Assembly (NCBI GenBank): GCA_022821685.1
Contig: JAJEDD010000042.1
Location: 35,071-99,070 of the forward strand
Reading direction: 5' to 3'
Origin: Acidimicrobiia bacterium
GTDB lineage: Bacteria > Actinomycetota > Acidimicrobiia > Acidimicrobiales > Aldehydirespiratoraceae
Length of the DNA stretch: 64,000 nucleotides
Each line of letters begins with the position of its first letter. Positions within the stretch are counted from its first letter, which is position 1. Shown here piece after piece: positions 14,322 to 51,240 of this stretch. The notes beneath the pieces are model-generated. The model ran no database searches and was not told the DNA's origin. It saw nothing but the letters and a program-made list of their open reading frames with translations. Position numbers and translations under genes: made by a program.

Positions 14322-14420
14322 GAGGCCGAGCGAATAGGCGTGCGAACCCGGCTCATATGGGCGAGGCCGTGGCCCGAGCGGCCCGTGAGCGCAGCGAACA
14401 AGAGCGGGAATGACCCCGCT
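14322..14420 (+). repeat. Dispersed REP-like hairpin repeat with expanded first loop
   Basis: GAGGCCGAGC...GCGAGGCCGTGGCCCGAGCGGCCCGTGAGCGCAGCGAACAAGAGCGGGAATGACCCCGCT. Confidence 0.9.
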
Positions 14421-14421
14421 C

Positions 14422-15315
14422 CTACAGGCGGGGTTCGGGGGGTGGGGGTCCCAGGCGCTCGAACTCGGCCTCGATGTCGGCGGTGGTGAGGGTGTTGGCT
14501 GCGACGCGTCGGCGGCGGTCGGTGGCATCGGCGCTGCGCTGCGCGGCCGAGTAGCGGAAGAACTTGATGGCGATGAGCGTCCACAGATAGAGGCCGCCCA
14601 GTACCTTCATCACCGCGCCGGCGGCCTGCTGGTCGGCCGTCACCGAGATGCCCCACAGCCGCTGGGCGTGGTCGTAGATCGGGTACACCGAGCCCTCGGC
14701 GAAGGTGAGCCAGGCGGCTGGCACGGTGGGCACGATCGACATGGCGAACAGGTACACCATCTTCATCGGCTCCGAGAGGTGCAGCTCCCTCAGCGGGCCC
14801 ACCACCGGCATCCACATGGCCAGCGCGCTGGTGAACATCAGCAGGTGCATGGCGTAGTGGAATCCGCCGCTGCGCACCGACAGCTCCACCAGGGTGCTCC
14901 AGTGCATCAGCCCCTGCAGAGCGTTGAACACCACGCCGGCCACCAGCGGATGCACCAGCCGCCGGATCACCCGAGCGGCCCGGGAGCCTTCCACCAGGAT
15001 GAGCCGGGCCAGCCACTCGGGCACGGCTATCAGCAGCAGCGGCGGCACCACGAAGCTGATGAGCAGGTGCTGCACCATGTGCACCGAGTAGAGGTATTGC
15101 TCGGCGATGTCGTGCATGGGCCAGTCCGCCGAGATCCACAGCAGCATCGCCCCGGCCGCGAAGCAGAGCCGCTGGCGGCGAGTAACCGACTCGCCGGCTG
15201 CGGGCGCCACCACCCGGACCACGTAGAAGCCGAGACCCGCCACCGCGGCCACCATCAGCCACGCCTCGGGATGGAATTGGAAGCGCCAGGCGTCGGCGGC
15301 AGCCAGCGCGCCCAC
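14422..15315 (-). CDS. ctaG: Cytochrome c oxidase assembly protein (caa3 CtaG family)
   Basis: YLYSVHMVQHLL...PPLLL, DQQAAGAVMK motifs; last gene of the oxidase cluster. Confidence 0.88.
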   Translation of the reverse strand: MGALAAADAWRFQFHPEAWLMVAAVAGLGFYVVRVVAPAAGESVTRRQRLCFAAGAMLLWISADWPMHDIAEQYLYSVHMVQHLLISFVVPPLLLIAVPEWLARLILVEGSRAARVIRRLVHPLVAGVVFNALQGLMHWSTLVELSVRSGGFHYAMHLLMFTSALAMWMPVVGPLRELHLSEPMKMVYLFAMSIVPTVPAAWLTFAEGSVYPIYDHAQRLWGISVTADQQAAGAVMKVLGGLYLWTLIAIKFFRYSAAQRSADATDRRRRVAANTLTTADIEAEFERLGPPPPEPRL

Positions 15316-15378
15316 GCTCGGCCCCAGGCTCAGAACGCCCGCGGGGGCGCGGTGCAGCCTTGCCCCGTGCCCTGGAAG

Positions 15379-15410
15379 TTCCCGCTCACCTTCGCTTCGC
15401 TCGCGGGCCG
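15379..15410 (-). repeat. Dispersed repeat, 3' half only
   Basis: Reverse complement CGGCCCGCGAGCGAAGCGAAGGTGAGCGGGAA. Confidence 0.75.
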
Positions 15411-15411
15411 A

Positions 15412-15762
15412 TCAGGCCCAGAACTCGAAGACGGTCAGCGTCACCACGTACACACCGACCGCGAGGACCAGCCCCGCGGTGAACATCCGGCCGAATAGCT
15501 TGCTGTCGAAGCGCAGGTGCATGAACCAGGTGGCCACCAAATAGAACTTGACCACCATCATGAAGATCAGCGAGGGCACCAGCGCCACGCCCCAGTCGAG
15601 CACCGTCTCGAAATAGGTGAACACCTCCAGGGCGGTGATCACGGCCAGAACTACCGCGATCTTGACGTAGGCCCAGTCCGAGGGATGGGAGTGGCCCTCG
15701 TCGTGCTCGGCAGTCTCGTCAGCCGCGGGCTCGGAGTGCTCGGTGACAGTCGTGTCGCTCAT
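15412..15762 (-). CDS. Prokaryotic cytochrome c oxidase subunit IV
   Basis: LAVITALEV, KFYLVATWFMHLRFD; 3 TM helices. Confidence 0.85.
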   Translation of the reverse strand: MSDTTVTEHSEPAADETAEHDEGHSHPSDWAYVKIAVVLAVITALEVFTYFETVLDWGVALVPSLIFMMVVKFYLVATWFMHLRFDSKLFGRMFTAGLVLAVGVYVVTLTVFEFWA

Positions 15763-15766
15763 GGTC

Positions 15767-16378
15767 CTAGTCCGCGGGGATCAGGTAGATGACGGTGAAG
15801 ATGAAGATCCACACTATGTCCACGAAGTGCCAATAGAGGCCGACGATCTCCACCGTCTCGGAATTGCGCTGGGTGAGCTTGCCCTTCACCGATGCCACGA
15901 ACAGCGACATCAGCATCACGATGCCGAGGCTCACATGCACTCCGTGGAAGCCGGTCAGGGTGAAGAAGGCGCTGCTGGCCGGGTTGGTGGTGAACGCCAC
16001 GCCCTCACGGACGAAGCTGGTGAACTCGTACACCTGCCCGCCGATGAACACGCCGCCCAGCAGGGCGGTGGCCAGCAGCCAAGTGCGGCCCGCCTCCTCC
16101 TCGCCCCGGGACACCGCGGAGAGGGCCAGCACCATGGTGAGCGAGCTCATCAACAGCACGAATGAGCTCACCGACGTGAACGGGATGTCGAACACGTCGG
16201 TGGGCAGCGTTCGGTTGTTGCCCCGGGTCTTGTACAGCAGGTAGGTGGAGATCAGCCCGCCGAAGAGCAGGCACTCCGAGCCCAGGAACACCCACATGGC
16301 CAGCTTGGTGTGCGACAGGCCGGTGGTGGTGGCGTGCTCGTCGTGACCGTGATCGGCGACCACAGCTTCGGCGCTCAT
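15767..16378 (-). CDS. ctaE: Cytochrome c oxidase subunit III
   Basis: MWVFLGSECLLF, LTGFHGVHV, GLYWHFVDIVWIFIF. Confidence 0.93.
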   Translation of the reverse strand: MSAEAVVADHGHDEHATTTGLSHTKLAMWVFLGSECLLFGGLISTYLLYKTRGNNRTLPTDVFDIPFTSVSSFVLLMSSLTMVLALSAVSRGEEEAGRTWLLATALLGGVFIGGQVYEFTSFVREGVAFTTNPASSAFFTLTGFHGVHVSLGIVMLMSLFVASVKGKLTQRNSETVEIVGLYWHFVDIVWIFIFTVIYLIPAD

Positions 16379-16487
16379 GGCTGGGCTCCCCGGCCGGCGG
16401 GTCCTGTCACGGGCGCGGCCTGGCGGCGCGAGCGCCGCCATTCCTTGCCCCCGTGCCACCCCCCGGCCTCGCCGGTTGCGCCAGCGC

Positions 16488-18473
16488 TCATTGCTCATCT
16501 CCGTCGTTGTCGGCCTCTTGGGCTTCTTGGTGATCTTCTTCGTGGTGGTCGTGGGCGGCGTCGGGGTCGTCCACCGGTTCCAGCGCCCACGAATAGAGCG
16601 AGGCGATCGTCAACAGGGCGCCGATCAGGGCCAGCCAGAGGTTGAAGATCAGGCCGTAGCCGATCAGCGGCAGGCCCACCGCCACCGCCAGCGGCCAGAA
16701 CGACGGCGAAGGCAGGTGCACGCCGGTCGCCTCGCCGGTCTGGGCGGCCTCCTCCACAGTGGCGACCCGCACCACCCTGCCGTCGTCGTCCTCCGCGTAC
16801 TTGGTGTGCCACCAGTCGTCGCGGCTGTGCACCTGCGGGACGGTGTCGAAGTTGTGGGTCGGCACCGGCGACGGGATCGACCACTCGAGAGTGCGGCCGT
16901 CCCAGGGATCCGGCCCCGGCGGCGGCAGATGGGGGGCGTCGCGCTTGGACTTCACCACGTTCCAGATGAAGATCAACACCGCCACCGCGATCAGCAGCGA
17001 TCCCACGGTGGCCGCCATGTTCCAGAACTCGAAGCCGTATCCCCGGGCGTAGGTGTCGATGCGGCGAGACATGCCCTGCAGGCCCAGGATGTGCATCGGG
17101 CCGAAGGTGAGGTTGAAGCCCACCAGCATCACCCAGAAATGCCAGTTGCCGAGCCGCTCGTTGAGGAAATGCCCCCAAATCTTGGGCCACCAGAAGTACA
17201 TGCCGGCGAACAGGCCGAGCACGCCGCCGCCGAAGATCACATAGTGGAAGTGGGCCACGATGTAGTAGGTGTCGGTCTGCTGGGTGTCGGCCGGCGCCAC
17301 CGAGTGGGTCACGCCCGACAGCCCGCCGATGGTGAACATGGCCACCGTGGCCACCGCGAACTTCATGGCCACCGTGAATTTGAGCTTCCCGCCCCACATC
17401 GTGGCCAGCCAATTGAGGACTTTCACCCCCGTCGGCACCGCGATGAACATGGTCGACAACGAGAAGGCGGCCACCGAGATGGGGCCTATGCCCGACACGA
17501 ACATGTGGTGGGCCCACACCCCCCAGCCCATGAAGCCGATGGCGATGCCGGAGAACACCATGAACTCGTAGCCGAACAGGGGCTTGCGGCTGAAGGTGGG
17601 GATCACCTCCGACACCACCCCGAAGGCGGGCAGGATGATGATGTACACCTCGGGGTGGCCGAAGATCCAGAACAGGTGCTGCCACAGCAGCGGGTCGGCC
17701 CCGGCGTCGGGGTTGAAGAACTGGGCGTCGAAGAGCCGGTCGAACATCAGCAGGAACAGCGCCACCGTGATGACCGGCAGCGCGAACAGCAGCAGGAACT
17801 GGGTGATCAGCAGCATCCAGGTCATCACCGGCATCCGCATCAGCGTCATGCCCGGCGCCCGCATGTTGAGGCAGGTGACGATCAGGTTCACCGACGACAC
17901 CAGCGAGGCGATGCCCAGGATCTGCAGGCCGATGGCGTAGAAGTCCACGCCGTGGCTGGGCGAGAAGGCCACCCCGCTGTTGGTGGAGTAGCAGAACCAG
18001 CCGCAGTCGGCCCCGCCGCCGCCCACGATCCACGAGGTGTTCAAGAAGATGGCGCCCGACAGCCAGATCCAGAACGACAGCGCGTTGAGGCGGGGGAAGG
18101 CCACGTCCCGGGCCCCTATCTGCAAGGGGATGAAGTAGTTCGCGAAGGCGGCGGCCAGCGGCATGATGAACAGGAACACCATGGTCACGCCGTGCATGGT
18201 GTACACCTGGTTGTAGACGTCGGCGCTGAGCACCGAGCCCTCCGGCGCGGCGAGCTGCAGGCGGATCAGCAGCGCTTCCACCCCGCCCACCAAAAAGAAG
18301 AACATGGCCGAGGCGCCGTAGAGGATGCCGATGCGCTTGTGGTCGACCGTGCTGAGCCAGTCGCGCCAGCCCCGGCCCTCCTGGGGGCGGGTGAACACGC
18401 CGAGGGGCCGCTGGGCATAGCGGGCGGTGTCGCCGGGGCCGATCTCGAGCGGCGTGTGCTCAGTTATGGCCAT
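16488..18473 (-). CDS. ctaD: Cytochrome c oxidase subunit I (A1 type)
   Basis: All six His ligands present: TMHG, GHPEVY, WAHHM, AHFHY; D-channel ARDVAFPR; K-channel PTGVK; GMSRR. Confidence 0.97.
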   Translation of the reverse strand: MAITEHTPLEIGPGDTARYAQRPLGVFTRPQEGRGWRDWLSTVDHKRIGILYGASAMFFFLVGGVEALLIRLQLAAPEGSVLSADVYNQVYTMHGVTMVFLFIMPLAAAFANYFIPLQIGARDVAFPRLNALSFWIWLSGAIFLNTSWIVGGGGADCGWFCYSTNSGVAFSPSHGVDFYAIGLQILGIASLVSSVNLIVTCLNMRAPGMTLMRMPVMTWMLLITQFLLLFALPVITVALFLLMFDRLFDAQFFNPDAGADPLLWQHLFWIFGHPEVYIIILPAFGVVSEVIPTFSRKPLFGYEFMVFSGIAIGFMGWGVWAHHMFVSGIGPISVAAFSLSTMFIAVPTGVKVLNWLATMWGGKLKFTVAMKFAVATVAMFTIGGLSGVTHSVAPADTQQTDTYYIVAHFHYVIFGGGVLGLFAGMYFWWPKIWGHFLNERLGNWHFWVMLVGFNLTFGPMHILGLQGMSRRIDTYARGYGFEFWNMAATVGSLLIAVAVLIFIWNVVKSKRDAPHLPPPGPDPWDGRTLEWSIPSPVPTHNFDTVPQVHSRDDWWHTKYAEDDDGRVVRVATVEEAAQTGEATGVHLPSPSFWPLAVAVGLPLIGYGLIFNLWLALIGALLTIASLYSWALEPVDDPDAAHDHHEEDHQEAQEADNDGDEQ

Positions 18474-18474
18474 G

Positions 18475-19713
18475 TCAGTCCACCTGGGTCGCTTCGATTA
18501 TCCAGCCCGCGGGCTTGGCGCCCAGACCTGAAAGGTAGGCCACCAGATCGTCGATCTGCTGCTCGCTCAAGTCGAGGTCGGGCATGCCCCGGTACTGCTC
18601 TCCGGGCACGGTGTAGTTGGCCTTGACGGCGCCGGGATCGCGCAGCCACGCTTCCAGGTCGGGGCGGTTGAGCGATCCGTCGGCGTTGTAGGTGTCGAGG
18701 ATCCCGCCCGCAAACGTGCTGCGCTCCGCGAAATGGGTCAGGTTCGGCGCGGCCCCCGAGGCCTGGTCGGCGCTCTCGAACACGTCGTCGTTGAGTCCCT
18801 CCACGACGTGGCAGGAGGTGCAGATGCCCGCGAACACCTCCATGCCCGCCAGCGCGTCGGCCGCGGTCGGCTCGGCCGCGTCGGCGCTGGTGCGGTCCAC
18901 CCAGGCCTGGAAGTCGGCCGGGGTGAGCGCCACCGTCTGCATTCTCATGCGGGAGTGCGACAGGCCGCAGAACTCGGTGCACTGCCCGAAGTAGACGCCG
19001 GGGTCCGATGCCTCGATCTTCCAGGGGGAGAAGCGGTTGGGGACGGCGTCGCGCTTGCCGTTGAGCGCCGGGATCCAAAACGAGTGGATCACGTCGCGCG
19101 ACGTGAGGATCAGCTCGACCTCCTCGCCGGTGGGGATCACCATCTGCCCCGATGTGACGATGTCGGCGGGGGGCAGCGTCTTGGCGTCGCCGTGGGCCCG
19201 CAGGTCGGCCAGGTCGACCTGGTCGGAGAAGTAGTAGCGGAACTCCCACCACCACTGGTTGCCCACCACCACCACCGTCGGCGCCCAGGAGACACTGCGG
19301 TCGTCGACGCTGACCGTCATGGTGTTGTCCTCGGTGGCGTCCACGGTGGGCAGCGACCACAGCATGATGCCCGCCACCGCGGTCATGGTCACGAAGAACC
19401 CGACGGTCCAGCCGACCTCCAGCGGGACGTGGCCGTGGGTCTGCGCGGGCCAGTCGTCGTCGCCGTCGTAGGTCCTCACCCGGTTCTTCCAGATGAGCCA
19501 GACCATGGCGATGGTGATTCCCACGAACACCACCGCCGCGATCCAGAACACCGGCAGCACGCCCCGGCTGTGCAGCTCCCTGGCGATCGGGCCCTGTGGC
19601 GCGAACGTGTCGAGCTCCGCGTCGGACGCGCAGCCGGCCACCGTCGCCGCGCCCAACAGCAGCAGCGCCCAGATGACGGCGCGGCGCCAAGCGGTCACCG
19701 GTGTCTCAGCCAC
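18475..19713 (-). CDS. ctaC: Cytochrome c oxidase subunit II with fused cytochrome c (caa3 type)
   Basis: QWWW, DVIHSFW, CuA motif CTEFCGLSHSRM, C-terminal CTSCH; GTG start overlaps upstream stop. Confidence 0.93.
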   Translation of the reverse strand: MAETPVTAWRRAVIWALLLLGAATVAGCASDAELDTFAPQGPIARELHSRGVLPVFWIAAVVFVGITIAMVWLIWKNRVRTYDGDDDWPAQTHGHVPLEVGWTVGFFVTMTAVAGIMLWSLPTVDATEDNTMTVSVDDRSVSWAPTVVVVGNQWWWEFRYYFSDQVDLADLRAHGDAKTLPPADIVTSGQMVIPTGEEVELILTSRDVIHSFWIPALNGKRDAVPNRFSPWKIEASDPGVYFGQCTEFCGLSHSRMRMQTVALTPADFQAWVDRTSADAAEPTAADALAGMEVFAGICTSCHVVEGLNDDVFESADQASGAAPNLTHFAERSTFAGGILDTYNADGSLNRPDLEAWLRDPGAVKANYTVPGEQYRGMPDLDLSEQQIDDLVAYLSGLGAKPAGWIIEATQVD

Positions 19714-20503
19714 CGTGGTCACCGCCTGCGGGCTCGCCGGACTCTTCGTGGTGGGTCTCGTCATGGTGGTGGAAGTCGCGCTCGCCCGCCACCGCGGCCA
19801 GCACCCCGCCCGCCAACAGCAACAGCGCGGCGACCACCCCACCGACGCGCACCAGGCGGCGGCCGATTCCGGGGCGGGCCACGTACAGCCAGGCGCCGCC
19901 CAGGATGAGGGCCGACACCACGCCGGCCACGGTCACCGCCTCCAGCTGCGACACCGTCAGCAGGATCCGCGACGCGGCCAGCACCACCACGCCCACGGCC
20001 AGCGCGCCGATCACGGGAATCTCAATTGGGGCCATGATCCGGTTGCGCAGCTCGCGGTTGGCCGAGGTGTCACCGGTAGCCCGATCGGCCCAGGCGTCCA
20101 TGGTCCACTCCACCAGCGACAGCACGATCAGGGCCAAGCCGAGCACGAACACCGCGGGATGCAGCACCAGCCCCAGCGCGGCCGCACCCACCCCGAAGGA
20201 GGCCACCACCGGCCAGAAGCTGGCCGCCACCGGCTGGTCGTTCATGACTTCGGACAGGCCCTGCAGACGGGCCTGGGCCGCCGCGTCGGCGTCCCGGAAC
20301 GACACCAGCACCAGGCTGATGGTCAGCGAGGCCGCCGCCAGCGCCACCAGCAGCCCGTAGCCGATGTGGTCGCCGACGCCGCCCTTCCATCCCAGCGACA
20401 GGGGTCCGACGTGGTCGCCGCCGGTGGTGTAGCCGTAGACGAGCGCGGCGGCGCAGAAGGCGGCGGACAGTCCGAAGAAGAACTTGAATCCGGTGGTGAA
20501 CAT
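19706..20503 (-). CDS. Membrane protein in oxidase operon, CtaF-like / subunit I C-terminal-helix-like
   Basis: About 7 TM segments; ASFWPVVASFG resembles PSFWPLAVAVG in this CtaD and actinobacterial CtaF; His-rich C-terminal tail. Confidence 0.55.
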   Translation of the reverse strand: MFTTGFKFFFGLSAAFCAAALVYGYTTGGDHVGPLSLGWKGGVGDHIGYGLLVALAAASLTISLVLVSFRDADAAAQARLQGLSEVMNDQPVAASFWPVVASFGVGAAALGLVLHPAVFVLGLALIVLSLVEWTMDAWADRATGDTSANRELRNRIMAPIEIPVIGALAVGVVVLAASRILLTVSQLEAVTVAGVVSALILGGAWLYVARPGIGRRLVRVGGVVAALLLLAGGVLAAVAGERDFHHHDETHHEESGEPAGGDHGG

Positions 20504-20513
20504 GCTCTGCGCC

Positions 20514-21098
20514 CTATTTGGTAATGAAAACGACGTACCAGACACCGAAGTAGCACACCACACACATGTGCCAGTAGAGGGCCGCGGCCTGCACGCCGTG
20601 GGCCAGCTCCCGGCCGAAAGGCCCCATCAGCGAGCGGATGGTGGTCACCGCCACCATAGCCATCCCGCCGATCAGCATGGCGATGAACGAGCCCGTCACC
20701 GCGTAGAACAGCAGCTCGGCCCGCCCGCCGTCGATAGCGAAGGCGGTGTCCTGGTACACGAACCAGAACTGGTTGATCACCGCCGCGCCGAACATCAGCG
20801 TGACCCCCAGTGCGATGAACCCGTGGGGCCGGTCCTCGGTGCGGGCGGCCTGCACCGCCCACTGCACGGTCACGATCGACAGCATCAGCGTCATCATCAT
20901 CATCCCGGCCGGGCCGAGCTCTACGCTGCCGTCGGGGAACCACTCCGCGCCCGCGGCCCGAGCCGCCTGGCGCTGCTGAACATATATCGCCACCAGGGCG
21001 GCGAAGGCCACGAACACCGCGGCCGTCGCCATCAGAACCCCCACCACCACCGTGCGGGGCCGGGTCGCCTCTGCAGCGGGCAGGGCCGTGGTTCTCAC
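20514..21098 (-). CDS. Second, divergent heme-copper oxidase subunit III-like protein
   Basis: FYAVTGSF...ALYWHMCVVCYFGVWYVVF aligns with CtaE FFTLTGFH...GLYWHFVDIVW; GTGA-coupled to upstream gene. Confidence 0.8.
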   Translation of the reverse strand: MRTTALPAAEATRPRTVVVGVLMATAAVFVAFAALVAIYVQQRQAARAAGAEWFPDGSVELGPAGMMMMTLMLSIVTVQWAVQAARTEDRPHGFIALGVTLMFGAAVINQFWFVYQDTAFAIDGGRAELLFYAVTGSFIAMLIGGMAMVAVTTIRSLMGPFGRELAHGVQAAALYWHMCVVCYFGVWYVVFITK

Positions 21099-22591
21099 GC
21101 TGCCTCGCTTCGGGCCGGGGCGGGTCGCAGCGCCGCCGCGGTCCCGGCCAGCCCGGCCGCCAGCAGCAGCGCTCCGACGAGGTTGACCACGTTGAGCACC
21201 ACGTTGGCGTCCAGCGCCAGGGCCATAAGGTCGCGGGCGTCGGACATGAACCCCGAGATCAGATCGGACAGCACCAGCAGGCTGGCACCTGCGCCCATCA
21301 ACAGCACCGTGCCCCGGCCCACCATGGCCGGCACGGGACGGATCGACAGCCGCTGCGGCCAGGTCATCAGCGCGACCACCCCGGCGACGAGGCCGGCGGC
21401 TACCACGCCGTGGAACACCGCCCAGGTGGCGGCGGTGTCGAGCAGATCGAAGGGCTCGATGACGCGCAGCGCCCCCACCAGCGCCGCCGCGCCGAGGAGC
21501 TTGAGGGCTGCGCCCGCGCCCACCATCCGGGGGTCGAGGAGCCGATCCAGCGACTTGGGGCCTCGCAGCACCAGTTCGGCTGCACCGCCGGCCAGCGCGG
21601 CCACCGGCACTGTCGCAGCCAGCCCGAAGGCCACATACACCAGGCCGTCGCGCAGATCCTGGGGGGCGGTGAAGTAGTCCTGGGACCAGCCGCCCACGGC
21701 CAGCAGCCCGAACAGGCCCACGATGACCGTGACGGCCTCGGGGCGGCTGGAGCGGGATCCGGTGGCGGCCGCCACCGCCTCGAAGGCGATGCCGAGCACC
21801 GGCACGGCCATGAGGTAGACGGCGGGCTGCTCCACCAGCCAGTCGAGCTGGAGCCAGATGTCGGGGCTCTCGGCCCGGCCGAAGGCGATGGCGGGCCGGC
21901 CCCGCAGGTCGGCGTAGATCACCACGATGTTGGCGATGGCCACGGGCAGCGTGAACAGCCAGGCCGCCGCGGCCACCAGCATCGACCAGGCGAATGGCGG
22001 CACCTCCAGCAGGCTCATGCCGCTGCGGCGCAGCGAGATCACGGTGGTGGCCACCGACACCGCGCCCACCAGCAGGGCCACGATCACCATGGCGGTGCCG
22101 AGCAGGGTGAGGGCCATGGCGTCGCTCTCGTTGCCGGTCACCCCGTCGACCGCGCCCCAGCCCCCGCCCGCCAGCACCGACACCACCACGATCAGCGCAC
22201 CGATCAGCCACGACCAGAACGAGGCCAGCGCGGCCCGGGGGAAGGCGAGGTTGCCCGCCCCGACCTGCTGTGGCACCACCGCCATGGCTACGCCGAGCAG
22301 CAGGGGCAGCACCACCAGCAGCATGAACGACACCCGGTACAGGGTCCACATGCGGAAATAGGCGTTGAGGCCGCCGAACATGTCGGCCGGGTCGACGACC
22401 TCGGTCCGCCCCAGCGAGAGCAGCGCCCCGACCACCGAGGTGCCCAGCCCCAGCAGCAGCGACACCACCACGAAGAGCCGGCCGACGGTGGCCGAGTCGC
22501 TGGTGACGAAGGGCTGGGCCAGCGCAGGCACCTCCGACGGGGCCGCGGGGGCGGCCTCCGAGTCGGCGACAGCCGGTTCGGTCAGCGTCAT
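21095..22591 (-). CDS. Degenerate heme-copper oxidase subunit I paralog lacking metal ligands
   Basis: VVPQQVGAGNLAFPR, WLQLDWLVEQPAVY, GGWSQDYF, WAVFHG align to CtaD with His ligands substituted; ORF intact, 498 aa. Confidence 0.85.
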   Translation of the reverse strand: MTLTEPAVADSEAAPAAPSEVPALAQPFVTSDSATVGRLFVVVSLLLGLGTSVVGALLSLGRTEVVDPADMFGGLNAYFRMWTLYRVSFMLLVVLPLLLGVAMAVVPQQVGAGNLAFPRAALASFWSWLIGALIVVVSVLAGGGWGAVDGVTGNESDAMALTLLGTAMVIVALLVGAVSVATTVISLRRSGMSLLEVPPFAWSMLVAAAAWLFTLPVAIANIVVIYADLRGRPAIAFGRAESPDIWLQLDWLVEQPAVYLMAVPVLGIAFEAVAAATGSRSSRPEAVTVIVGLFGLLAVGGWSQDYFTAPQDLRDGLVYVAFGLAATVPVAALAGGAAELVLRGPKSLDRLLDPRMVGAGAALKLLGAAALVGALRVIEPFDLLDTAATWAVFHGVVAAGLVAGVVALMTWPQRLSIRPVPAMVGRGTVLLMGAGASLLVLSDLISGFMSDARDLMALALDANVVLNVVNLVGALLLAAGLAGTAAALRPAPARSEAA

Positions 22592-22610
22592 CGGGAGGCG
22601 ATGCTACACA

Positions 22611-23519
22611 TCACAGGCCGTTGCTAATCAGCACGTCGGCCGCGACCGCGCCGAACAGGATCATCACGTAGGCGTTGGACCAGCCGAACAACCGGATCGA
22701 CCGGGTCGGGTCGGGGCGGCGCAGCACATCGAGGGCCAAGCCCACAAAGCCCGCGCCCGCGATCAGCGCCGCCACCAGGTAGAAGGCGCCCATGTCGGCC
22801 ACCGGCACCAGCACCAGTGTGAACGCCACCAGCACCACCGTGTAGGCGACGATGCGGCGGGCGGTGGTGCGCAGCCCGGCCACCGCGGGAAGCATGGGAA
22901 CCTCCGCGGCCCGGTAGTCGCTGCGATAGCGGATGGCCAGGGCCCAGAAGTGGGGCGGCGTCCAGTAGAAGATCACCGCGAACAGCACCACCGGGGGCCA
23001 GTCGAGCGAGCCCGTGACCGCGGTCCAGCCCACCAGGGTGGGCACCGCGCCGGCCGCGCCCCCGATCACGATGTTGCGTATGGACGTGCGCTTGAGCCAC
23101 AGCGAGTAGACGAACACGTAGAACGCAGCCGCCGACGCGGCCAGAGCCGCCGAAAGCAGGTTGACGAAGGCCCCCAGCCACACGAACGATCCGACGGTGA
23201 GGGCCGATGCGAACACCACCGCCTCGGTCGGCCGGACTGCGCCGGTGACCAGGGGACGGTTGCGGGTGCGATGCATGAGCCGGTCGATGTCGCGGTCGAT
23301 GTACATGTTGAGGGCGTTGGCGCCGCCCGCGGCCATCGCTCCCCCCGCCACGGTGGCCGCCATCAGCCCCAGCGACGGCAGCCCCTGCTCGGCCAGGATC
23401 ATCGACGGAACGGTGGTGACCAGCAGCAACTCCACGATCCGGGGCTTGGTCAGGGCCGCGAAGGCCGCGGCGCGGGCTCGGCGGGGCGCGCGCACCCCGC
23501 CGGTCACGGTTCCGGTCAC
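22611..23519 (-). CDS. ctaB: Heme O synthase (protoheme IX farnesyltransferase)
   Basis: LTKPRI, NMYIDRDIDRLMHRTRNRPL, WTPPHFWAL. Confidence 0.96.
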   Translation of the reverse strand: MTGTVTGGVRAPRRARAAAFAALTKPRIVELLLVTTVPSMILAEQGLPSLGLMAATVAGGAMAAGGANALNMYIDRDIDRLMHRTRNRPLVTGAVRPTEAVVFASALTVGSFVWLGAFVNLLSAALAASAAAFYVFVYSLWLKRTSIRNIVIGGAAGAVPTLVGWTAVTGSLDWPPVVLFAVIFYWTPPHFWALAIRYRSDYRAAEVPMLPAVAGLRTTARRIVAYTVVLVAFTLVLVPVADMGAFYLVAALIAGAGFVGLALDVLRRPDPTRSIRLFGWSNAYVMILFGAVAADVLISNGL

Positions 23520-23570
23520 CCCCGCAGGCTAGGACATCGAGCGGCCCATACGACAGATCGAGCGCCGTCT

Positions 23571-23605
23571 TTCCCGCTCATGTTGGCTGCGCTCACGGGC
23601 CGCTC
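23571..23605 (-). repeat. Dispersed repeat, 3' half, between divergent ctaB and ctaA
   Basis: Reverse complement GAGCGGCCCGTGAGCGCAGCCAACATGAGCGGGAA. Confidence 0.8.
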
Positions 23606-23648
23606 ACAACCCGATCCCACACCGGCCATTTCGCTCTACCATCGACGT

Positions 23649-24725
23649 GTGGCACCGCACGCCTACGCCCGGCTCACCCGGTTCGCTCTGTGGGCGCTGG
23701 CGGCCATCGTCGTGACCGGCGTGTCGGTGCGCCTCACCGGGTCGGGTCTGGGCTGCGAGGACTGGCCCGCCTGCTCCGAGGACCGCTTCGTGGCCGACCT
23801 CGAGTACCACGCCCTGGTGGAGTTCGTGAACCGGCTCTTCACCGGGGTGGTGGCCATCGCGGTGATGGCCGCGGTGCTGGGCTCCTGGCGGCGCCGGCCC
23901 CGGCGGACCGATCTGATTCTGCTGTCGCTGGGACTGGTGGCGGGGGTGCTGGCCCAGGTCGGGCTGGGGGCGCTGCTGGTGCTGTCGGAGCTCGACCCCC
24001 GCTTCACCATGGGTCACTTCCTGCTGTCGATGGTGCTGCTGTGGAACGCAGCCGTGCTCGACGTCCGAGCCCGCCGCGACGCCGAGGCCGCGGCTACGGG
24101 TCTCGGCGATCCCGTCGGTTCGACCGGCTCGGCCCCAGCCGCGCATCGAGTCGATGCCACCACCCGGCTGTTGTTGTGGGCCGTGCTGGCGGTCGGCGGA
24201 GCCCTGCTGGTGACCGGCACCCTGGTCACCGGTGCGGGACCCCACGCCGGCGACAGCCGGGCCGAGCGACTCCCGCTGCTGGTGCGCGAGGTGGCCCGGA
24301 TCCACAGCATCGTCGCACTCTGCCTGCTGGCGTTGGTGGTGTGGGCGTGGTGGCGGCTCAGAGGCCGAGCTTGCGAGGCCGTGGCCCGAGCGGCCCGTGA
24401 GCGCAGCGAACAAGAGCGGGAGATACCCCCCTTCGACGCGAAGCCTCCCCACCTATCCGCGTGGCGGCTCAGAGGCCGAGCGGATAGTCGAGCGGGGCAG
24501 GTCCGCATGGGGCGGATCGCGGTGCTGCTGGTAGTGCAGGGCGCGGTCGGCTACCTGCAGTACTTCACCGGTGTGCCCGCGCTACTGGTGGGAGTGCACG
24601 TGACGCTGGCGTCGATCACCTGGATCGAGATCGTCAAGGCCGCCCACGACCCCGCCACCGGCGCGGCTGCACAGCTGGAGCCCCGTTCGCCCGACGGCGC
24701 GGCCATGATCGGGGCGCGGCCATGA
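23649..24725 (+). CDS. ctaA: Heme A synthase (COX15/CtaA) with an in-frame repeat insertion
   Basis: [47 protein letters not shown]. Confidence 0.9.
24361..24421 (+). repeat. Dispersed repeat, full copy inside the ctaA coding sequence
   Basis: GAGGCCGAGCTTGCGAGGCCGTGGCCCGAGCGGCCCGTGAGCGCAGCGAACAAGAGCGGGA. Confidence 0.93.
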
Positions 24726-25126
24726 ACTCGGACACTGCACGGACTCCCGTGAGCGAGAATCGACCGGCCTCACTCCCGCTCATGCTCGCTTCGCTCACGG
24801 GCCGCTCGGGTCACGGCCTCGCAAGCTCGGCCTCCATGAGCGCGCCGGTCACCTCGCCGGTGAAGGACCCGGTGGACGAGACCGTCCGCCGGCCCGACCT
24901 GCCCTGGAAGGTGATCGTGCTCGACGACCCGGTCAACCTGATGTCGTACGTCACCTACGTGTTCCGCAAGTTGTTCGGATATTCGCAGCAGAAGGCCCAC
25001 CGCCTGATGATGCAGGTCCACACCGAGGGCAGGGCCGTGGTGGCGTCGGGTCAGCGGGAGAAGGCCGAGTTCGACGTGTACCGGCTCCACGAGCACGGCC
25101 TGTGGGCCATCCTCGAGCAGGACTGA
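24722..25126 (+). CDS. clpS: Clp protease adaptor ClpS (core begins at ATG 24836; upstream ATGA-coupled in-frame start at 24722)
   Basis: [26 protein letters not shown]...[12 protein letters not shown]...HGLWA. Confidence 0.93.
24774..24834 (-). repeat. Dispersed repeat, full copy in the clpS 5' region
   Basis: Reverse complement matches the consensus with few substitutions; ends 1 nt before ATG 24836. Confidence 0.9.
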
Positions 25127-25673: not shown

Positions 25674-25746
25674 GCCCCCATCGTCCAGCGGCCTAGGACG
25701 CCGGCCTTTCACGCCGGTAACACGGGTTCGAATCCCGTTGGGGGTG
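25674..25746 (+). tRNA. tRNA-Glu(TTC)
   Basis: Cloverleaf; anticodon arm CCGGC-CTTTCAC-GCCGG; T arm ACGGG-TTCGAAT-CCCGT. Confidence 0.95.
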
Positions 25747-25801
25747 CGAGCAGCGGGCTGGCTCGCTAGCGTTTCGGGTTCCGCACGTCCGTCGTGCACC
25801 C

Positions 25802-25876
25802 GGTCCTGTAGATCAGTCTGGAGTGATCGCCACCCTGTCAAGGTGGAGGCCGCGGGTTCAAATCCCGTCAGGACCG
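25802..25876 (+). tRNA. tRNA-Asp(GTC)
   Basis: Acceptor GGTCCTG/CAGGACC; anticodon arm CCACC-CTGTCAA-GGTGG. Confidence 0.95.
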
Positions 25877-25906
25877 CGTTGTCGCCCTCCGGGGTGGCGA
25901 CAACCC

Positions 25907-25982
25907 GGTCGGGTAGCTCAGTTGGCAGAGCGTCCGCCTGAAAAGCGGAAGGTCCGCGGATCGACGCCGCGCCCGACCACCA
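25907..25982 (+). tRNA. tRNA-Phe(GAA)
   Basis: Acceptor GGTCGGG/CCCGACC, anticodon arm TCCGC-CTGAAAA-GCGGA, encoded CCA. Confidence 0.93.
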
Positions 25983-25988
25983 CCACCA

Positions 25989-26065
25989 GAGGCCGAGCTT
26001 GCGAGGCCGTGGGCTGTGTCGCCTGGGGTTTGGGCGACCCGTGAGCGCAGCGAACAAGCGCGGGA
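25989..26065 (+). repeat. Dispersed repeat, long-spacer subtype, after tRNA-Phe
   Basis: GAGGCCGAGCTTGCGAGGCCGTGGGCTGT...TTGGGCGACCCGTGAGCGCAGCGAACAAGCGCGGGA. Confidence 0.88.
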
Positions 26066-26150
26066 GTGACAACGCCGCACTGCGAGGCGCTTGGGAGCAA
26101 ACCGCGCGTGTTCGAAAGTGCGATCCCAGCAGTCTCGCTAGGGTCTACCC

Positions 26151-33961: not shown

Positions 33962-34465
33962 TCAGTCGCTCCTTAGTTTCCCGCTCTTGTTCGCTGTGCT
34001 CGCGGGCCCCTCGGGCCACGGCCTCACCAGCTCGGCCTCTGGCGATCCGACGGGTTCGACCACCGAGGCGGGGCCACGGGTGGCCCGGTAGATGGTGACC
34101 GCCCGGCTGGATGCGACCGCGGGCAGCCGCACGCCGGGGTTGAAGCCGCGGGCTGCCAACTCGGCCGACTGGCGCTCATGGGCCCGGCGGGCATCGTCGA
34201 GCTCGACCTGCAGCTCGGCCACGGCCGCCTCCAACTCCAGGACTCGCTGCACCCCGGCCAGGTTGAGGCCCTCGTCGGTGAGCTCGGCGATGCGCTCGAG
34301 CAGGGCGAGGTCGGCGTCGCTGTAGCGGCGGCTGCCGCCCGCAGTCCTCGCCGGCGCCAGCAGGCCCCTGCGCTCGTAGATGCGCAGCGTCTGGGGGTGG
34401 ACCCCGGCCAGCTCGGCGGCCACCGATATCACGTATACGGCCTTGTGGAAGCGGTCGTCAGTCAT
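33962..34465 (-). CDS. hspR: Heat-shock repressor HspR (MerR family) with repeat-derived C-terminal tail
   Basis: YVISVAAELAGVHPQTLRIYERRGLL...GGSRRYS...EGLNLAGV; downstream of dnaJ. Confidence 0.93.
   Translation of the reverse strand: MTDDRFHKAVYVISVAAELAGVHPQTLRIYERRGLLAPARTAGGSRRYSDADLALLERIAELTDEGLNLAGVQRVLELEAAVAELQVELDDARRAHERQSAELAARGFNPGVRLPAVASSRAVTIYRATRGPASVVEPVGSPEAELVRPWPEGPASTANKSGKLRSD
33979..34039 (-). repeat. Dispersed repeat, diverged copy inside the hspR 3' end
   Basis: Reverse complement GAGGCCGAGCTGGTGAGGCCGTGGCCCGAGGGGCCCGCGAGCACAGCGAACAAGAGCGGGA. Confidence 0.9.
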
Positions 34466-45236: not shown

Positions 45237-45321
<85 letters not shown>

Positions 45322-45333
45322 CCCCTCTATATC

Positions 45334-46056
45334 TCAGCGGGCGAAGGCGGCAAGCCACTGCTCGCGGCTGGTGGGGCTGAACACGTAGTTGCGCTCTCGG
45401 GTGGTGCCCATGGTGGCCGACGACTCCAGCGAGTAGCGATGGCCCGGATACAGCACCGCCTCGTCGGGCACCCGGGCCAGCCGGGTGGTGAGGCTCTCAT
45501 ACATCTGGGCCGGGTCGGAGCCGGGCAGGTCCATGCGCCCGCAGCCCTCGAGGAAGAGGGTGTCGCCGGCTACCAGCCGGCCGTCCACCAGGAAACACTG
45601 GCTGCCGGGGGTGTGGCCCGGCGTGGCGATCAGTTCGATGTCGACCGCGCCCACTGTCACCACGTCGGCTGAGGCGTGGCTGACCAGACAGTCGGCGTCC
45701 ACCCCGGTCACCTTGCGCACGTATTCGGCCTCAGCGCCCTGGACGTGGATCGGCGCCGACACCCGCTCCAGCAGCCGGCTGATGCCCTCGATGCTGAGGC
45801 CCATCATCTCGCCGCCCACATGGTCGGGGTGGTAGTGGGTGGCCAGCACGCCGACGCAGGCCATGTCATCGGCCTCCAGCCGGTCGAGCAGTTCCCAGGT
45901 GTCGTAGGCGGGATCGACGAGCACGGCCTGGCCCGTCCGGCGGTCGCCGATCGCGTAGACGAAGTTCACCATCTGGCAGGCCAGCGGGTCGCCCGCCGCG
46001 AAGTCGCGCCCCGACAGCCACTGGCGGAAGTACAGCCGATCCTCCACGCCGGTCAC
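45334..46056 (-). CDS. MBL-fold metallo-hydrolase (glyoxalase II-like)
   Basis: THYHPDHVGG, TPGHTPGSQC, GDTLFLEGCGR, YPGH. Confidence 0.9.
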   Translation of the reverse strand: MTGVEDRLYFRQWLSGRDFAAGDPLACQMVNFVYAIGDRRTGQAVLVDPAYDTWELLDRLEADDMACVGVLATHYHPDHVGGEMMGLSIEGISRLLERVSAPIHVQGAEAEYVRKVTGVDADCLVSHASADVVTVGAVDIELIATPGHTPGSQCFLVDGRLVAGDTLFLEGCGRMDLPGSDPAQMYESLTTRLARVPDEAVLYPGHRYSLESSATMGTTRERNYVFSPTSREQWLAAFAR

Positions 46057-46209
46057 CGGCCACCGCCCAGGGCCCCGTGAAGCGCACCAAGGCCCCCGCG
46101 GAAGTGCAGCCGATCCTCCACGCCGGTCACCCTATGGGGTTCGGCCACCGAGCGGGTAGGCCCATCTCGCTGGCGCTGATCCCGGCGGCGGGGCCGTACC
46201 CTGCCGTGG

Positions 46210-47133
46210 ATGGAGCCAACCGTCGGATACCTGGGCCCGCCGGGGACGTTCACCGAGCAGGCGATCTACTCCCAGCCCGATCTGGCCCGCATGAACCACC
46301 GGCCCATCAACTCGATCGTCGATGTGCTGCGGGCGGTCGGCAGCGGCGAGGTCGATCTGGGGCTGGTGGCCATCGAGAACATGATCGAGGGGTCGGTCAC
46401 CGCCACCCTCGACGCGCTGGCCTTCGACACCGACCTGTTCATCCAGCGCGAGGTGATCATCGACGTCAACCTCAACCTGCTGGTCGTCCCCGGCACGGCG
46501 CTGGAGTCAGTACAGCGGATCCGCTCCTATCCGGTGGCCCACGCCCAGTGCCGCGAGTATCTGGCCGCGCAGCTCCCCGGCGCGGTGTTCGAGGCCACCA
46601 ATTCCACCGCCGATGCGGCCCGCAGCCTGGCCGAATCGGGCGACCGCACCACCGCGGCCATCGCCCCGCTGCGCTCGGCGGAGGTGTACGGGCTGGACGT
46701 GCTGGCCGCCGACATCGCCGACCGTGCCGACAACCAGACCCGCTTCGTGCTGGTCGGCGCCGACGTGATCGCCGCGCCGACCGGCCACGACAAGACGAGC
46801 ATGGTCGTCTACCAGCGCTCCGACGTGCCGGGCTCGCTCATCGGCATCCTGGGCGAGTTCGCGGCCCGGTCCATCAACCTCACCAGCCTCCAGAGCCGCC
46901 CCACCAAGTCCAGCCTGGGCCAGTACTGCTTTCTGCTCGACTGCGAGGGCCACATCGCCAACGAGGTGGTGGCCGACGCCCTGCGCAACCTGAGCATGAA
47001 GACGTCCCGGGTGAAGTTCCTCGGCTCCTACCCGTCGGCGACGGCCGACCATCACGACCAGGTGATGAACCAGGCCGAGATGCGCAAGGCGTCCGCCTGG
47101 ATCGAAGACCTGAGAGCCCGGATCCCTAGATAG
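46210..47133 (+). CDS. pheA: Prephenate dehydratase
   Basis: YLGPPGTFTEQA, IENMIEGSV, NQTRF, SRPTK, FLGSYP. Confidence 0.95.
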   Translation: MEPTVGYLGPPGTFTEQAIYSQPDLARMNHRPINSIVDVLRAVGSGEVDLGLVAIENMIEGSVTATLDALAFDTDLFIQREVIIDVNLNLLVVPGTALESVQRIRSYPVAHAQCREYLAAQLPGAVFEATNSTADAARSLAESGDRTTAAIAPLRSAEVYGLDVLAADIADRADNQTRFVLVGADVIAAPTGHDKTSMVVYQRSDVPGSLIGILGEFAARSINLTSLQSRPTKSSLGQYCFLLDCEGHIANEVVADALRNLSMKTSRVKFLGSYPSATADHHDQVMNQAEMRKASAWIEDLRARIPR

Positions 47134-47162
47134 GGGCCGTTCAGTCTCTTATCCTTGGCGGC

Positions 47163-47249
47163 GGAGGGATGGCAGAGCGGACGATTGCGACGGTCTTGAA
47201 AACCGTTGGGCCTTCACCGGTCCCGGGGGTTCGAATCCCCCTCCCTCCG
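47163..47249 (+). tRNA. tRNA-Ser(TGA)
   Basis: Acceptor GGAGGGA/TCCCTCC, anticodon arm ACGGT-CTTGAAA-ACCGT, long variable arm. Confidence 0.95.
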
Positions 47250-47286
47250 CCCGCTACCGGCAACTTCCCATCGTGAGGAGGTCGCC

Positions 47287-48576
47287 GTGATCCGTTTGCG
47301 CTCACGCTTGGCCGTTCTGGCTGTAGTCGCGGCAACGGCGGCCGCTTGCGGGTCCAACGGCGACGAAGCCGCGTCGACCCCCGCGACCACGGCGCCAACT
47401 ACCACCGCGGCCCCCGCCCCAACCGTGTCGCCGCCTGCAACAGCCGCACCTACATCAGGCGCCGCTACGACAGGCGCCGACGAACCCACAGCCGCTGTCA
47501 CGACAACCACCCCGGCAGCTCCTGCCACAACGACCGCGGCCACCACCGACACGACAACCACTGCGACCACTACAACGACCACCACCACGCTGCCACCCGT
47601 GGCCGACTCGCCGTGGGAGCGGGTTGTAGGCACCGAGGACTGCGCCTGCGCCGACGGCAGCGAGTACGTCTACTGGGTGCGACAGGGCGACCCGTCAAAG
47701 CTGGTCTTCTACCTGGAGGGCGGCGGGGCCTGCTTCAGCGACGGGACCTGCTCTTTCAGCACCGGCAACTACGACCCGACCGCCGATGATTCCGACCCCT
47801 ACGACAACCCGTACTACTGGCCGGGCATATTCGACTTCGACAACCCTCTCAACCCGCTCAGGCACCACTCCTTCGTGGTGGCGCTGTACTGCACCGGCGA
47901 CATCCACATCGGCAACAACACCCACGACTACGGCCGCGGCGTGGTGGTGCGCCACAACGGTTTCGTGAACGCCAACACCGCACTCGACACCGCGGTCGAG
48001 CGCTTCGGCGGAGCGACCGAGGTGGTGGTGGCCGGAACCAGCGCCGGGTCGGCCGCGGCGCCCCTGTACGGCGGTCTGGCCGCCGACCGGTTCCCGCAGG
48101 CCGACATCGCGGTGATGGCCGACTCCTCGGGCGCCTACCCCAGCGTCCCGGCGGTGAACGCCGGCATCGGCGAGCTGTGGGGCACGTTCAGCGCGGTGCC
48201 GGACTGGCCGGTCAACCAAGACGTGACACCCGAGCAGTGGGGCCTGCCCGAGCTGTTCATCCAGGCCGGGCGCCACGCTCCGAGGATCCGGTTCGGCCGG
48301 TTCGACAACGCCTTCGACCGCACTCAGGAGTTCTTCGCCCGGCTGGCCGGATTCGACGCCAGCCGGCTCGATGAGCTGATGCTGCTGAACGAGTCGCGGA
48401 TCGAGGAGGCCGGCGTCAGCCAGGCCAGCTTCACCGCGCCGGGCCGCGACCACGGAATCCTGCCCCGCGACTCCTTCTACGACCTGGAGGTCGAGGGCAT
48501 ATCGTTCCTCGACTGGTTCACCCGGTTCCTGCAAGGCGACGACGTAGCCGACCTAACCTGCACGGACTGCGCCTAG
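47287..48576 (+). CDS. Pectinacetylesterase/Notum-family lipoprotein with Thr/Ala/Pro-rich tether
   Basis: GAGGAG RBS, lipobox AAAC, CADGS, YLEGGGAC, YCTGDIHIG, nucleophile GTSAG, ADSSG. Confidence 0.82.
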   Translation: MIRLRSRLAVLAVVAATAAACGSNGDEAASTPATTAPTTTAAPAPTVSPPATAAPTSGAATTGADEPTAAVTTTTPAAPATTTAATTDTTTTATTTTTTTTLPPVADSPWERVVGTEDCACADGSEYVYWVRQGDPSKLVFYLEGGGACFSDGTCSFSTGNYDPTADDSDPYDNPYYWPGIFDFDNPLNPLRHHSFVVALYCTGDIHIGNNTHDYGRGVVVRHNGFVNANTALDTAVERFGGATEVVVAGTSAGSAAAPLYGGLAADRFPQADIAVMADSSGAYPSVPAVNAGIGELWGTFSAVPDWPVNQDVTPEQWGLPELFIQAGRHAPRIRFGRFDNAFDRTQEFFARLAGFDASRLDELMLLNESRIEEAGVSQASFTAPGRDHGILPRDSFYDLEVEGISFLDWFTRFLQGDDVADLTCTDCA

Positions 48577-48647
48577 AGGCCGAGCTTGCGAGGCCGTGGC
48601 CCGAGCGGCCCGTGAGCGCAGCGAACAAGAGCGGGAATGACCCCGCT
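48576..48647 (+). repeat. Dispersed repeat, full copy overlapping the stop codon of the lipoprotein gene
   Basis: Same 61 bp as the ctaA copy, plus the ATGACCCCGCT tail shared with the 14322 copy. Confidence 0.93.
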
Positions 48648-48716
48648 GCGACGCAACAGCCTCGTAGCGGCCCGCGGACGCTCGAAGGGCCGACACGCGG
48701 TACGCTCGGGGCTTCC

Positions 48717-48805: not shown

Positions 48806-48876
48806 CGCTTTGTGTCGGGGCTAGTCCGGTCGGGGGCTTTGGGGTCGTGGGGGGCGCTACACTGCGGCTTCCCCTA

Positions 48877-51231: not shown

Positions 51232-51240
51232 TCCGCGGGA

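Follow-up and report, generated by a model that had tools for sequence, protein, structure and literature searches.

Haem-copper oxidases are among the best-studied membrane enzymes, and their subunit I is defined by six histidine ligands. In mycobacteria and corynebacteria, the membrane core of the bcc-aa3 system consists of CtaD, CtaE and CtaF (PDB 6adq, 7rh5, 7q21). The same three-subunit membrane set is found in three genes, here named dCox1, dCox3 and P3 and together called the module, that lie between ctaB and the caa3 oxidase genes in a stretch of 64,000 nt (the window) from a member of the order Acidimicrobiales (class Acidimicrobiia, family Aldehydirespiratoraceae; assembly GCA_022821685.1, contig JAJEDD010000042.1, positions 35,071 to 99,070). 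Among solved structures, the best sequence matches of dCox1 and of the N-terminal unit of P3 are in the mycobacterial and corynebacterial core, and a complex model sets P3 against the subunit I and subunit III homologues (I' and III'). Unlike the actinobacterial aa3 core, the module lacks the CuB site, the haem a3 ligand, both proton channels (D and K) and a dedicated subunit II, and at most one haem a ligand is left; unlike actinobacterial CtaF, the CtaF-like unit of P3 is fused to three more helices. Scores of the module on the NCBIfam families of actinobacterial aa3 oxidases fall far below the cut-offs (101 versus 880, and 47 versus 190 bits for dCox3 on its best match, aa3_CtaE_Actin, NF050119). 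With the neighbouring caa3 genes, a Bacillus/Thermus-style ctaBCDEFG cluster, the module shares operon neighbourhood and fold, at pairwise identities of 26% (dCox1 and CtaD) and 21% (dCox3 and CtaE).

Two further groups of proteins invite comparison. According to the text of Murali et al. 2024 (PMC11214002), eNOR, bNOR, sNOR, gNOR and nNOR are haem-copper oxidase families that lack the active-site tyrosine and do not reduce O2, and their active sites remain metal sites, with an aspartate in place of one histidine in gNOR. As far as that text allows a comparison, the module proteins are likewise divergent superfamily members with altered active sites, but in the module it is the ligands that have disappeared, and the Tyr often persists at its position. 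A NOR-type centre requires the His ligands of both haems and a non-haem metal, a set that dCox1 does not have, and no NOR family was present among the NCBIfam matches of the module proteins. Among membrane-anchored blue-copper carriers (PF00127; sulfocyanin SoxE, PF06525), the PF00127 proteins with three transmembrane helices from other Acidimicrobiia orders have an anchor homologous to the three C-terminal helices of P3, whose copper domain is absent in the genus of the window. Literature searches, including the text of PMC9145763, PMC11214002 and PMC11706023, returned no description of the module; the supplements, especially that of PMC11214002, could hold family lists.

Here we show that the module is intact, has kept the oxidase fold, evolves under purifying selection, has descended vertically and always precedes ctaC-ctaD-ctaE. 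New in this work are the recognition of P3 as a fusion that has lost a cupredoxin, a gradient of cofactor loss among relatives, the exclusion of a recent tandem duplication, and counts across the order and the phylum.

Fold, ligands and predicted assembly of the module proteins

dCox1 is recognised by the Pfam family COX1 (PF00115) with an E-value of 2.3e-33 and 116 bits, above the cut-off of 34.8, the neighbouring CtaD reaching 509 bits. On the CtaD_CoxA equivalog TIGR02891 it scores 145 bits versus a cut-off of 670.75, compared with 684.5 bits for the neighbouring CtaD. The AlphaFold2 (AF2) model of dCox1 has twelve long helices (pLDDT 85.7, pTM 0.89) and superposes on solved A-type subunit I chains with a TM-score of about 0.8 (Foldseek); the best sequence matches among solved structures are 6adq_F (E 8e-25) and 7rh5/7rh6.

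Within this fold, a single one of the six metal-ligand histidines is kept. The first haem a His is replaced by Tyr (Tyr85), the three CuB His by Gln, Gln and Asp, and the haem a3 His by Val, while the second haem a His is retained. The Asp and Glu of the D channel have become Asn and Ala, and the Lys of the K channel has become Leu; the residue that faces the PTGVK motif varies with the alignment, the Lys being lost in all of them. These positions were read from a pairwise alignment, a HMMER alignment to the CtaD of M. smegmatis (6adq_F) and a 64-sequence alignment. All motif changes listed by an earlier sequence-only reading of this DNA were recovered in the three alignments, which confirms the ligand loss. 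In the 64-sequence alignment, all 32 true CtaD sequences keep the 16 checked positions, apart from Tyr in place of one conserved Trp in nine of them, indicating that the ligand changes of dCox1 exceed what is expected by chance.

Across 21 family-level orthologues, dCox1 has a mean identity of 33%, compared with 63% for their CtaD. Gly, Pro, Trp and Arg predominate among the dCox1 positions conserved in at least 85% of these orthologues, and with two exceptions the conserved residue is also the majority one in CtaD. We found no conserved polar or charged site specific to the dCox1 family among these 21 orthologues, and the positions of the D and K channels hold varied, mostly uncharged residues. 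The second protein, dCox3, matches COX3 (PF00510) with an E-value of 1.9e-11 and 44.8 bits, above the Pfam cut-off of 23.8, the homology extending over the five-helix core.

P3 matches no Pfam family: on PF12270 it reaches 14.4 bits versus a cut-off of 26.9, and this family is found in 5 of the 21 P3 orthologues, with a best E-value of 1.1e-4. A profile (A3) was built from the 21 orthologues. Its positions 6-130 match CtaF chains of mycobacteria and Corynebacterium (E 9e-5 to 1e-3) and align with residues 5-125 of the chains 9wcx_m, 6adq_H and 8hcr_H (E 9e-5 to 2e-4), a span that would cover the whole four-helix unit and that supports the CtaF-like nature proposed earlier for the third protein. 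A weaker match (E 0.003), through helices 3-4 of P3, leads to the first two helices of the seven-helix subunit III in 1m56_C. AF2 models P3 with seven membrane helices (pLDDT 77), and a fold search with this model had as its best matches the CtaF chain 6adq_H (Z 7.8, rmsd 4.8 over 74 residues) and the subunit III chain 9f5x_2D (Z 7.7, rmsd 2.6 over 61 residues), all Z-scores being below 8, a level common for helical models. In the ESM Atlas, P3 fell with unnamed clusters and with one automatically named 'cytochrome c oxidase polypeptide IV', which we take as a lead only.

The C-terminal part of P3 has another relationship. Residues from about 135 to 260 align to the anchor of proteins from other Acidimicrobiia orders in which three transmembrane helices are followed by a PF00127 domain (3TM+cupredoxin proteins). 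In these orders (loci L034-L046), a gene for such a three-helix anchor with a plastocyanin/azurin-type domain stands right after ctaG in 12 of 13 caa3 loci (for example L035:8117-8953), and the loci have neither dCox1 nor dCox3. PF00127 is above its cut-off in all three of these proteins that were scanned, and no family name for them was found with the databases used. The 3TM+cupredoxin protein is a candidate for a dedicated electron donor of the caa3 oxidase.

Several P3 orthologues still have the copper domain. The C-terminal domain is retained in L026-L033, and of the Pfam families used for it (PF00127 or PF13473), Cupredoxin_1 is above the cut-off in L026, L030, L031 and L032. The Cys-His-Met copper motif is present in L031-L033 only, being gone in 5 of the 8 orthologues that keep the domain. 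In the family of the window the domain is absent, and P3 ends 26 residues past its last helix in a His/Glu-rich tail with 6 His among the last 30 residues. Such tails are recurrent, 13 orthologues that lack the copper domain having 1-6 His among their final 30 residues; the composition of the tails is loosely conserved and their sequence is not. Within a helix of the anchor, a Ser-Arg pair (S178-R179) is invariant and common to the anchors of other orders. By homology, P3 is a fusion of a CtaF-like N-terminal unit with the anchor of a lost cupredoxin, a point that had been missed in the sequence-only reading.

One complex prediction was made for dCox1, dCox3 and P3, with P3 as the partner and custom alignments. 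P3 scored 0.84 against dCox1 + dCox3, and the best of three controls 0.28; in the benchmark of the score, 58 of 80 solved complexes attained this mark, as did 2 of 110 mismatched pairs. At least 71% of contacts are common to the runs, with a partner pLDDT of 66. The confident interface is formed by P3 residues 3-148, the CtaF-like part, and not by the three-helix anchor. Conserved dCox1 positions are enriched at this interface (9 of 34 residues versus 58 of 498 overall; Fisher p 0.011). The model supports binding of P3 to dCox1 + dCox3, and with it the three-protein subcomplex that had been proposed earlier.

Selection, distribution and descent

The ratio of non-synonymous to synonymous substitution (dN/dS) was estimated by the Nei-Gojobori method in 13 genomes of the genus, with 67-76 of the 78 pairs counted per gene (dS 0.05-1.5). 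Median values were 0.255 for dCox1, 0.136 for dCox3 and 0.195 for P3, and those of the neighbours were 0.106 for CtaD, 0.095 for CtaE, 0.147 for CtaB, 0.166 for CtaC, 0.154 for CtaG and 0.208 for caa3 subunit IV. All are far from 1. Each of 24 genomes from the genus has a dCox1 orthologue free of internal stops (59-95% identity), and P3 is present in 39 of 41 relatives. In the 20 loci fetched across the order, dCox1-dCox3-P3 has intact frames and is followed in every case by ctaD-ctaE, a ctaC homologue is found in each, and ctaB stands directly upstream of dCox1 in 19. Selection and synteny both agree with the earlier suggestion that the module is maintained rather than decaying.

We then counted the module more widely. 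In an even draw of the order, with each genome at least 90% complete, a single strong dCox3 match was found in 95 of 161 genomes (including two unpublished ones, G720 and G786). The module is also carried by several complete genomes of family f7 that consist of one contig, G053 and G105 among them. In a draw of 401 genomes from the phylum, dCox3 matches of at least 184 bits occurred in 22 of 24 genomes of this order and in 0 of 377 others. Another 62 matches were weaker (92-132 bits); they come from other classes and, in the case of G085, from this order, and the unpublished G417, G446 and G379 are among them. Dead modules in other classes were considered as their source and rejected: the ten fetched loci and G085 score about equally on the CtaE profile, indicating that the matches in these loci are ordinary CtaE.

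A profile search of 1.84 billion representatives was used to survey the ligands, taking the best 150 matches, which are representatives at 50% identity. For 146 of these, the score on the dCox1 profile exceeds that on a CtaD profile by over 50 bits, and they belong to the dCox1 family. The full CuB site with all three His is found in none of the 146. Ligand histidines number none in 86, one in 32, two in 23, three in 4 and four in 1, and both haem a His are kept in 22. Public annotations of close dCox1 relatives read 'hypothetical protein', 'cytochrome c oxidase subunit 1' or 'cbb3-type cytochrome c oxidase subunit I', and the records are metagenome-assembled genomes of Acidimicrobiales, many of them named Candidatus Aldehydirespirator; a search for related loci with a single window protein likewise returned metagenome-assembled genomes only and no cultured strain.

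dCox1 sequences group in a single clade (SH-aLRT 100) with an internal branching order that parallels the CtaD tree, indicating vertical inheritance that reaches back to near the base of Acidimicrobiales. This first tree sampled caa3 sequences only and could not show a position outside caa3 CtaD. In a site-heterogeneous tree with wider sampling, dCox1 is placed apart from a well-supported clade that unites all CtaD from caa3 clusters of the class, and dCox1, caa3 CtaD and the canonical aa3-type ('type b') CtaD form an unresolved three-way split. dCox3 similarly groups by itself, outside the well-supported clade of caa3 CtaE from the class. Since both lie outside the caa3 clades, the module cannot have been copied recently from its neighbours, and a recent tandem duplication of ctaD/ctaE is ruled out. 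On these trees the module is an older paralogue and not a copy of the adjoining ctaD/ctaE, which the sequence-only reading had missed.

We also considered whether the module could be a degenerate orthologue of type-b CtaD. Four families of the order (f19, f20, f25 and f29) lack the module and have type-b CtaD instead, which is suggestive. The idea was not upheld: six genomes (G034, G040, G250, G264, G244 and G063) combine the module with both type-b-like and caa3 CtaD, so that a simple replacement story fails. Counts of this co-occurrence include the unpublished genomes G737, G720 and G786. As a separate observation, in the loci from the four families (L059-L063) the aa3-type CtaD is followed by a small CtaF-like gene, and these families have smaller genomes (about 2.0-2.9 Mb in the five examined).

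The deepest branches in both the CtaD and the dCox1 trees are L033 and the pair L031+L032 (dCox1 genes at L033:1990-3621, L031:9738-11360 and L032:5920-7548). In these three lineages dCox1 keeps both haem a His, and they are exactly the three with an intact blue-copper motif in P3. L031 and L032 additionally keep the haem a3 His and the D-channel Glu. All three are already without the CuB His, which are replaced by Arg/Ala/Gly or Gln/Thr/Asp. Among the other 18 family-level orthologues, L017 alone keeps both haem a His, and the copper motif is found in none of the 18. The lineages in which haem and copper ligands are co-retained are kin, so that this is a pattern and not a statistical test. 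From the ligands kept, the module type of L031-L033 may be a redox-active, non-oxidase member of the superfamily. That deep branches retain haem and blue-copper ligands had escaped the sequence-only reading.

Gene layout, start block and surroundings

The genes of the locus are listed in Table 1. The three open reading frames, packed tightly between ctaB and ctaCDEFG and free of stops and frameshifts, are as the sequence-only reading had them. The GTG start of dCox3 overlaps the dCox1 stop as GTGA, and a gap of 10 nt separates dCox3 from P3. Translation of ctaC may start at the GTG at 19698, 7 nt past the P3 stop, or at the GTG at 19713, so that the overlap of P3 and ctaC described earlier holds with the second start and gives way to a 7-nt gap with the first.

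Table 1. Coordinates of the module, the caa3 oxidase genes and other features of the window
Feature	Position	Strand	Description
ctaB (haem O synthase)	22611-23519	-	PF01040, 220 bits; directly upstream of dCox1
dCox1	21095-22591	-	498 aa, 12 helices; haem-copper oxidase subunit I homologue
Invariant start block of dCox1	22577-22606	-	30 nt: TAGCAT, 9 nt, ATG, first 15 nt of the coding sequence
dCox3	20514-21098	-	194 aa, 5 helices; oxidase subunit III homologue
P3 (third module gene)	19706-20503	-	265 aa, 7 helices
P3 residues 1-145	20069-20503	-	four helices resembling actinobacterial oxidase subunit IV (CtaF)
P3 residues 146-265	19706-20068	-	three helices homologous to cupredoxin-protein membrane anchor
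ctaC	18475-19698	-	PF00116 + PF00034; lipoprotein signal, CuA cupredoxin, fused cytochrome c; immediately downstream of P3
ctaD	16488-18473	-	true subunit I with all ligands; PF00115; TIGR02891 above cut-off
ctaE	15767-16498, alternative starts possible	-	PF00510
caa3 subunit IV gene	15412-15762	-	PF03626
Caa3_CtaG	14422-15315	-	PF09678
ctaA (haem A synthase)	23601-24725, start codon approximate	+	PF02628, 64 bits; divergent from ctaB
Intergenic repeat copies	14348-14427, 15365-15413, 23557-23605, 24360-24439, 24759-24841, 26004-26083, 33964-34042, 48569-48654, 51114-51263, 62693-62741		about 50-80 nt, both orientations
PYLIS_3 match	51853-51952	-	Rfam, pyrrolysine insertion sequence of mttB
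Three tRNA genes in a row	25674-25979	+	just past clpS
Four more tRNA genes	45237-48951	+	

The module has no subunit II of its own. In the genome of the window (96% complete), the one PF00116/COX2 match is ctaC of the caa3 operon, which is therefore the sole subunit II gene, and the same genome holds two COX1-family genes and, on another contig, a cytochrome b. The true CtaD ends in a fused two-helix tail (window positions 16488-16800) that resembles the second half of actinobacterial CtaF (PF12270, residues 580-632), and behind this tail the protein terminates in an acidic, His-rich end.

The start region of dCox1 is constant within the genus. The TAGCAT box 9 nt ahead of the ATG was confirmed, and the 30-nt block that contains it is identical in 12 of 12 members of the genus; the flanks vary, the distance between ctaB and dCox1 ranging from 19 nt to about 105 nt. 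In its own genome the block is unique at up to 3 mismatches. It has no Shine-Dalgarno sequence, the spacer reads CCTCC, and a hairpin around it folds no better than shuffles (z -0.92). TAGCAT is possibly a -10 box with a very short leader, and the block fits a dedicated promoter or a short-leader start for the module; a scan for promoters and terminators gave weak in-gene matches only. As for transcripts, three metatranscriptome runs contain 6-8% of the sampled words. Short contigs from RNA libraries, 88-95% alike and hence from relatives, lie on dCox1 (X1 record 7) and dCox3 (X3 record 23), the X2 and X3 libraries have almost nothing on P3, and no contig among those listed bridges P3 and ctaC.

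The intergenic repeat of Table 1 has the core CCCGAGCGGCCCGTGAGCGCAGCGAACAAGAGCGGGA and at least ten copies in the window, several of them flanking cta genes. It looks like a repetitive extragenic palindromic (REP) or miniature inverted-repeat transposable (MITE)-type element; read in frame, it yields spurious peptide stretches in lists of open reading frames, and the fold of one copy was no better than shuffles (z -1.38). The PYLIS_3 match (52.5 bits versus a gathering score of 38) probably falls within a gene for an MttB-family methyltransferase.

Possible roles of the module

We propose that the products of the three genes are a paralogue of the membrane core of the oxidase, depleted of cofactors and made of a subunit I', a subunit III' and a CtaF-like IV' fused to what was once the anchor of a blue-copper protein. 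These proteins would assemble into a single membrane subcomplex, made together with the caa3 oxidase. Having no CuB, haem a3 ligand, proton channels or own subunit II, such a subcomplex would be unable to reduce oxygen or pump protons, and it would instead act as a structural partner of the respiratory chain. Roles as a pseudo-twin of the oxidase in a pseudo-dimer, or as a scaffold of a supercomplex, are both plausible. The core proteins of the mitochondrial bc1 complex are inactive enzyme homologues that serve as structural subunits. They offer an analogy for a dead paralogue kept as architecture, in a different protein family and with the difference that membership of the module in a complex is here inferred. 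The relatives suggest that the ancestor still had redox activity, its subunit I' lacking CuB but containing a bis-His haem that was fed by a tethered blue-copper domain, and that most lineages, including that of the window, later shed all cofactors and retained the architecture. Since the cofactors were lost and the architecture kept, the architecture would be the selected property. We favour this reading as a whole, in which the module is a structural and non-catalytic subcomplex in the respiratory chain, produced along with the caa3 oxidase and derived from a redox-active ancestor by selection on architecture, and we consider it somewhat more probable than not. A more specific version, in which a hitherto unnoticed branch of the superfamily began as a CuB-less, two-haem I' with tethered blue copper, transferring electrons in the membrane without being an oxidase, and ended in Acidimicrobiales as a cofactor-free twin that a hetero-oligomeric caa3 oxidase or supercomplex requires as its structural half, we put forward tentatively and with considerable doubt.

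Several observations weigh against the structural reading. The dN/dS of dCox1 is about 2.4 times that of CtaD and its branches are 4-5 times longer, so that the constraint is real but loose. A strong dCox3 match is missing from 66 of the 161 order genomes, and the existence of families that have another aa3-type CtaD without the module indicates that it is dispensable for respiration as such. The pass of the complex model may reflect likeness, because mycobacterial CtaD-CtaE-CtaF complexes have been solved, and the custom alignments lay outside the calibration of the tool. Finally, the RNA-library contigs come from relatives and may stem from DNA carry-over, giving no evidence either way on expression. 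Looser constraint and patchy occurrence, namely the faster evolution of dCox1 compared with the true subunits and the genomes without the module, are also what a decaying, functionless pseudogene cluster carried along by the operon would show. We consider this almost certainly wrong, as the frames are intact in 24 genus genomes and 20 order loci, dN/dS of 0.14-0.26 contradicts neutrality, the family has diverged to 33% mean identity without breaking, and the 30-nt start block is invariant.

Among the rival readings, assembly or copper handling is the most probable, and even so we think it unlikely. An inert I'-III'-IV' body would hold newly made CtaC or cofactors while the oxidase is being built, and the extracytoplasmic tail of P3 would bind copper destined for CuA or CuB. 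Such a role would suit the position of the module between the haem A genes (ctaB, ctaA) and ctaC, the occurrence of the P3-like 3TM+cupredoxin gene after the copper-insertion gene ctaG in other orders, the recurrent His-rich tails, and the presence of one subunit II for two subunit-I-like proteins in the genome. On the other hand, the cupredoxins of the relatives are of the plastocyanin Cys-His-Met type, which fits an electron carrier over a chaperone, the tails are not conserved in sequence, no known chaperone family was matched by the module proteins, and a body of 12+5+7 helices is a costly anchor for a tail. Binding or carriage of haem, in particular of haem A, by the retained haem a His together with Tyr85 had been raised in the sequence-only reading. 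The Tyr and His at the two ligand positions are indeed invariant in the 12 genus sequences, the module adjoins ctaB and ctaA, and 22 of the 146 representatives keep both haem a His. However, the His is Asn in the sister genus, both positions vary freely across the 21 families, 86 of the 146 representatives have no ligand His at all and the Tyr/His pair occurs in only 2, and the Arg pair for the haem propionates is lost. Because the ligand positions are not conserved across the family, haem binding cannot be the function that preserves it, and we regard a haem-carrier role as improbable. A new transport or channel function for ions, protons or small molecules in the emptied subunit I scaffold is, in our estimate, similarly improbable: the fold does enclose the cavities formerly filled by two haems, and the invariant Ser-Arg of P3 (S178, R179) lies within a helix and is shared with the anchors of other orders, but dCox1 shows no conserved polar or charged residue of its own and the channel positions hold varied, mostly uncharged ones.

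In conclusion, at least 146 clusters at 50% identity keep the subunit I/III/IV architecture through the history of the order, most of them shedding the cofactors. If the module is part of a working oxidase or supercomplex, as the structural reading holds, it would represent a new way to build respiratory complexes and a natural experiment on the roles of the scaffold besides catalysis, such as access of lipid and oxygen, supercomplex contacts and assembly; if it is an obligate twin of the oxidase, the caa3 enzyme would be the first known respiratory oxidase with a dead copy of the core as one of its parts. As annotation pipelines label dCox1 genes as oxidase subunit I, an extra terminal oxidase would be counted when the metabolism of marine and sponge-associated Acidimicrobiia is reconstructed. 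The lineages that retain haem and blue-copper ligands provide a stepwise record of the passage from an enzyme to a pseudoenzyme.

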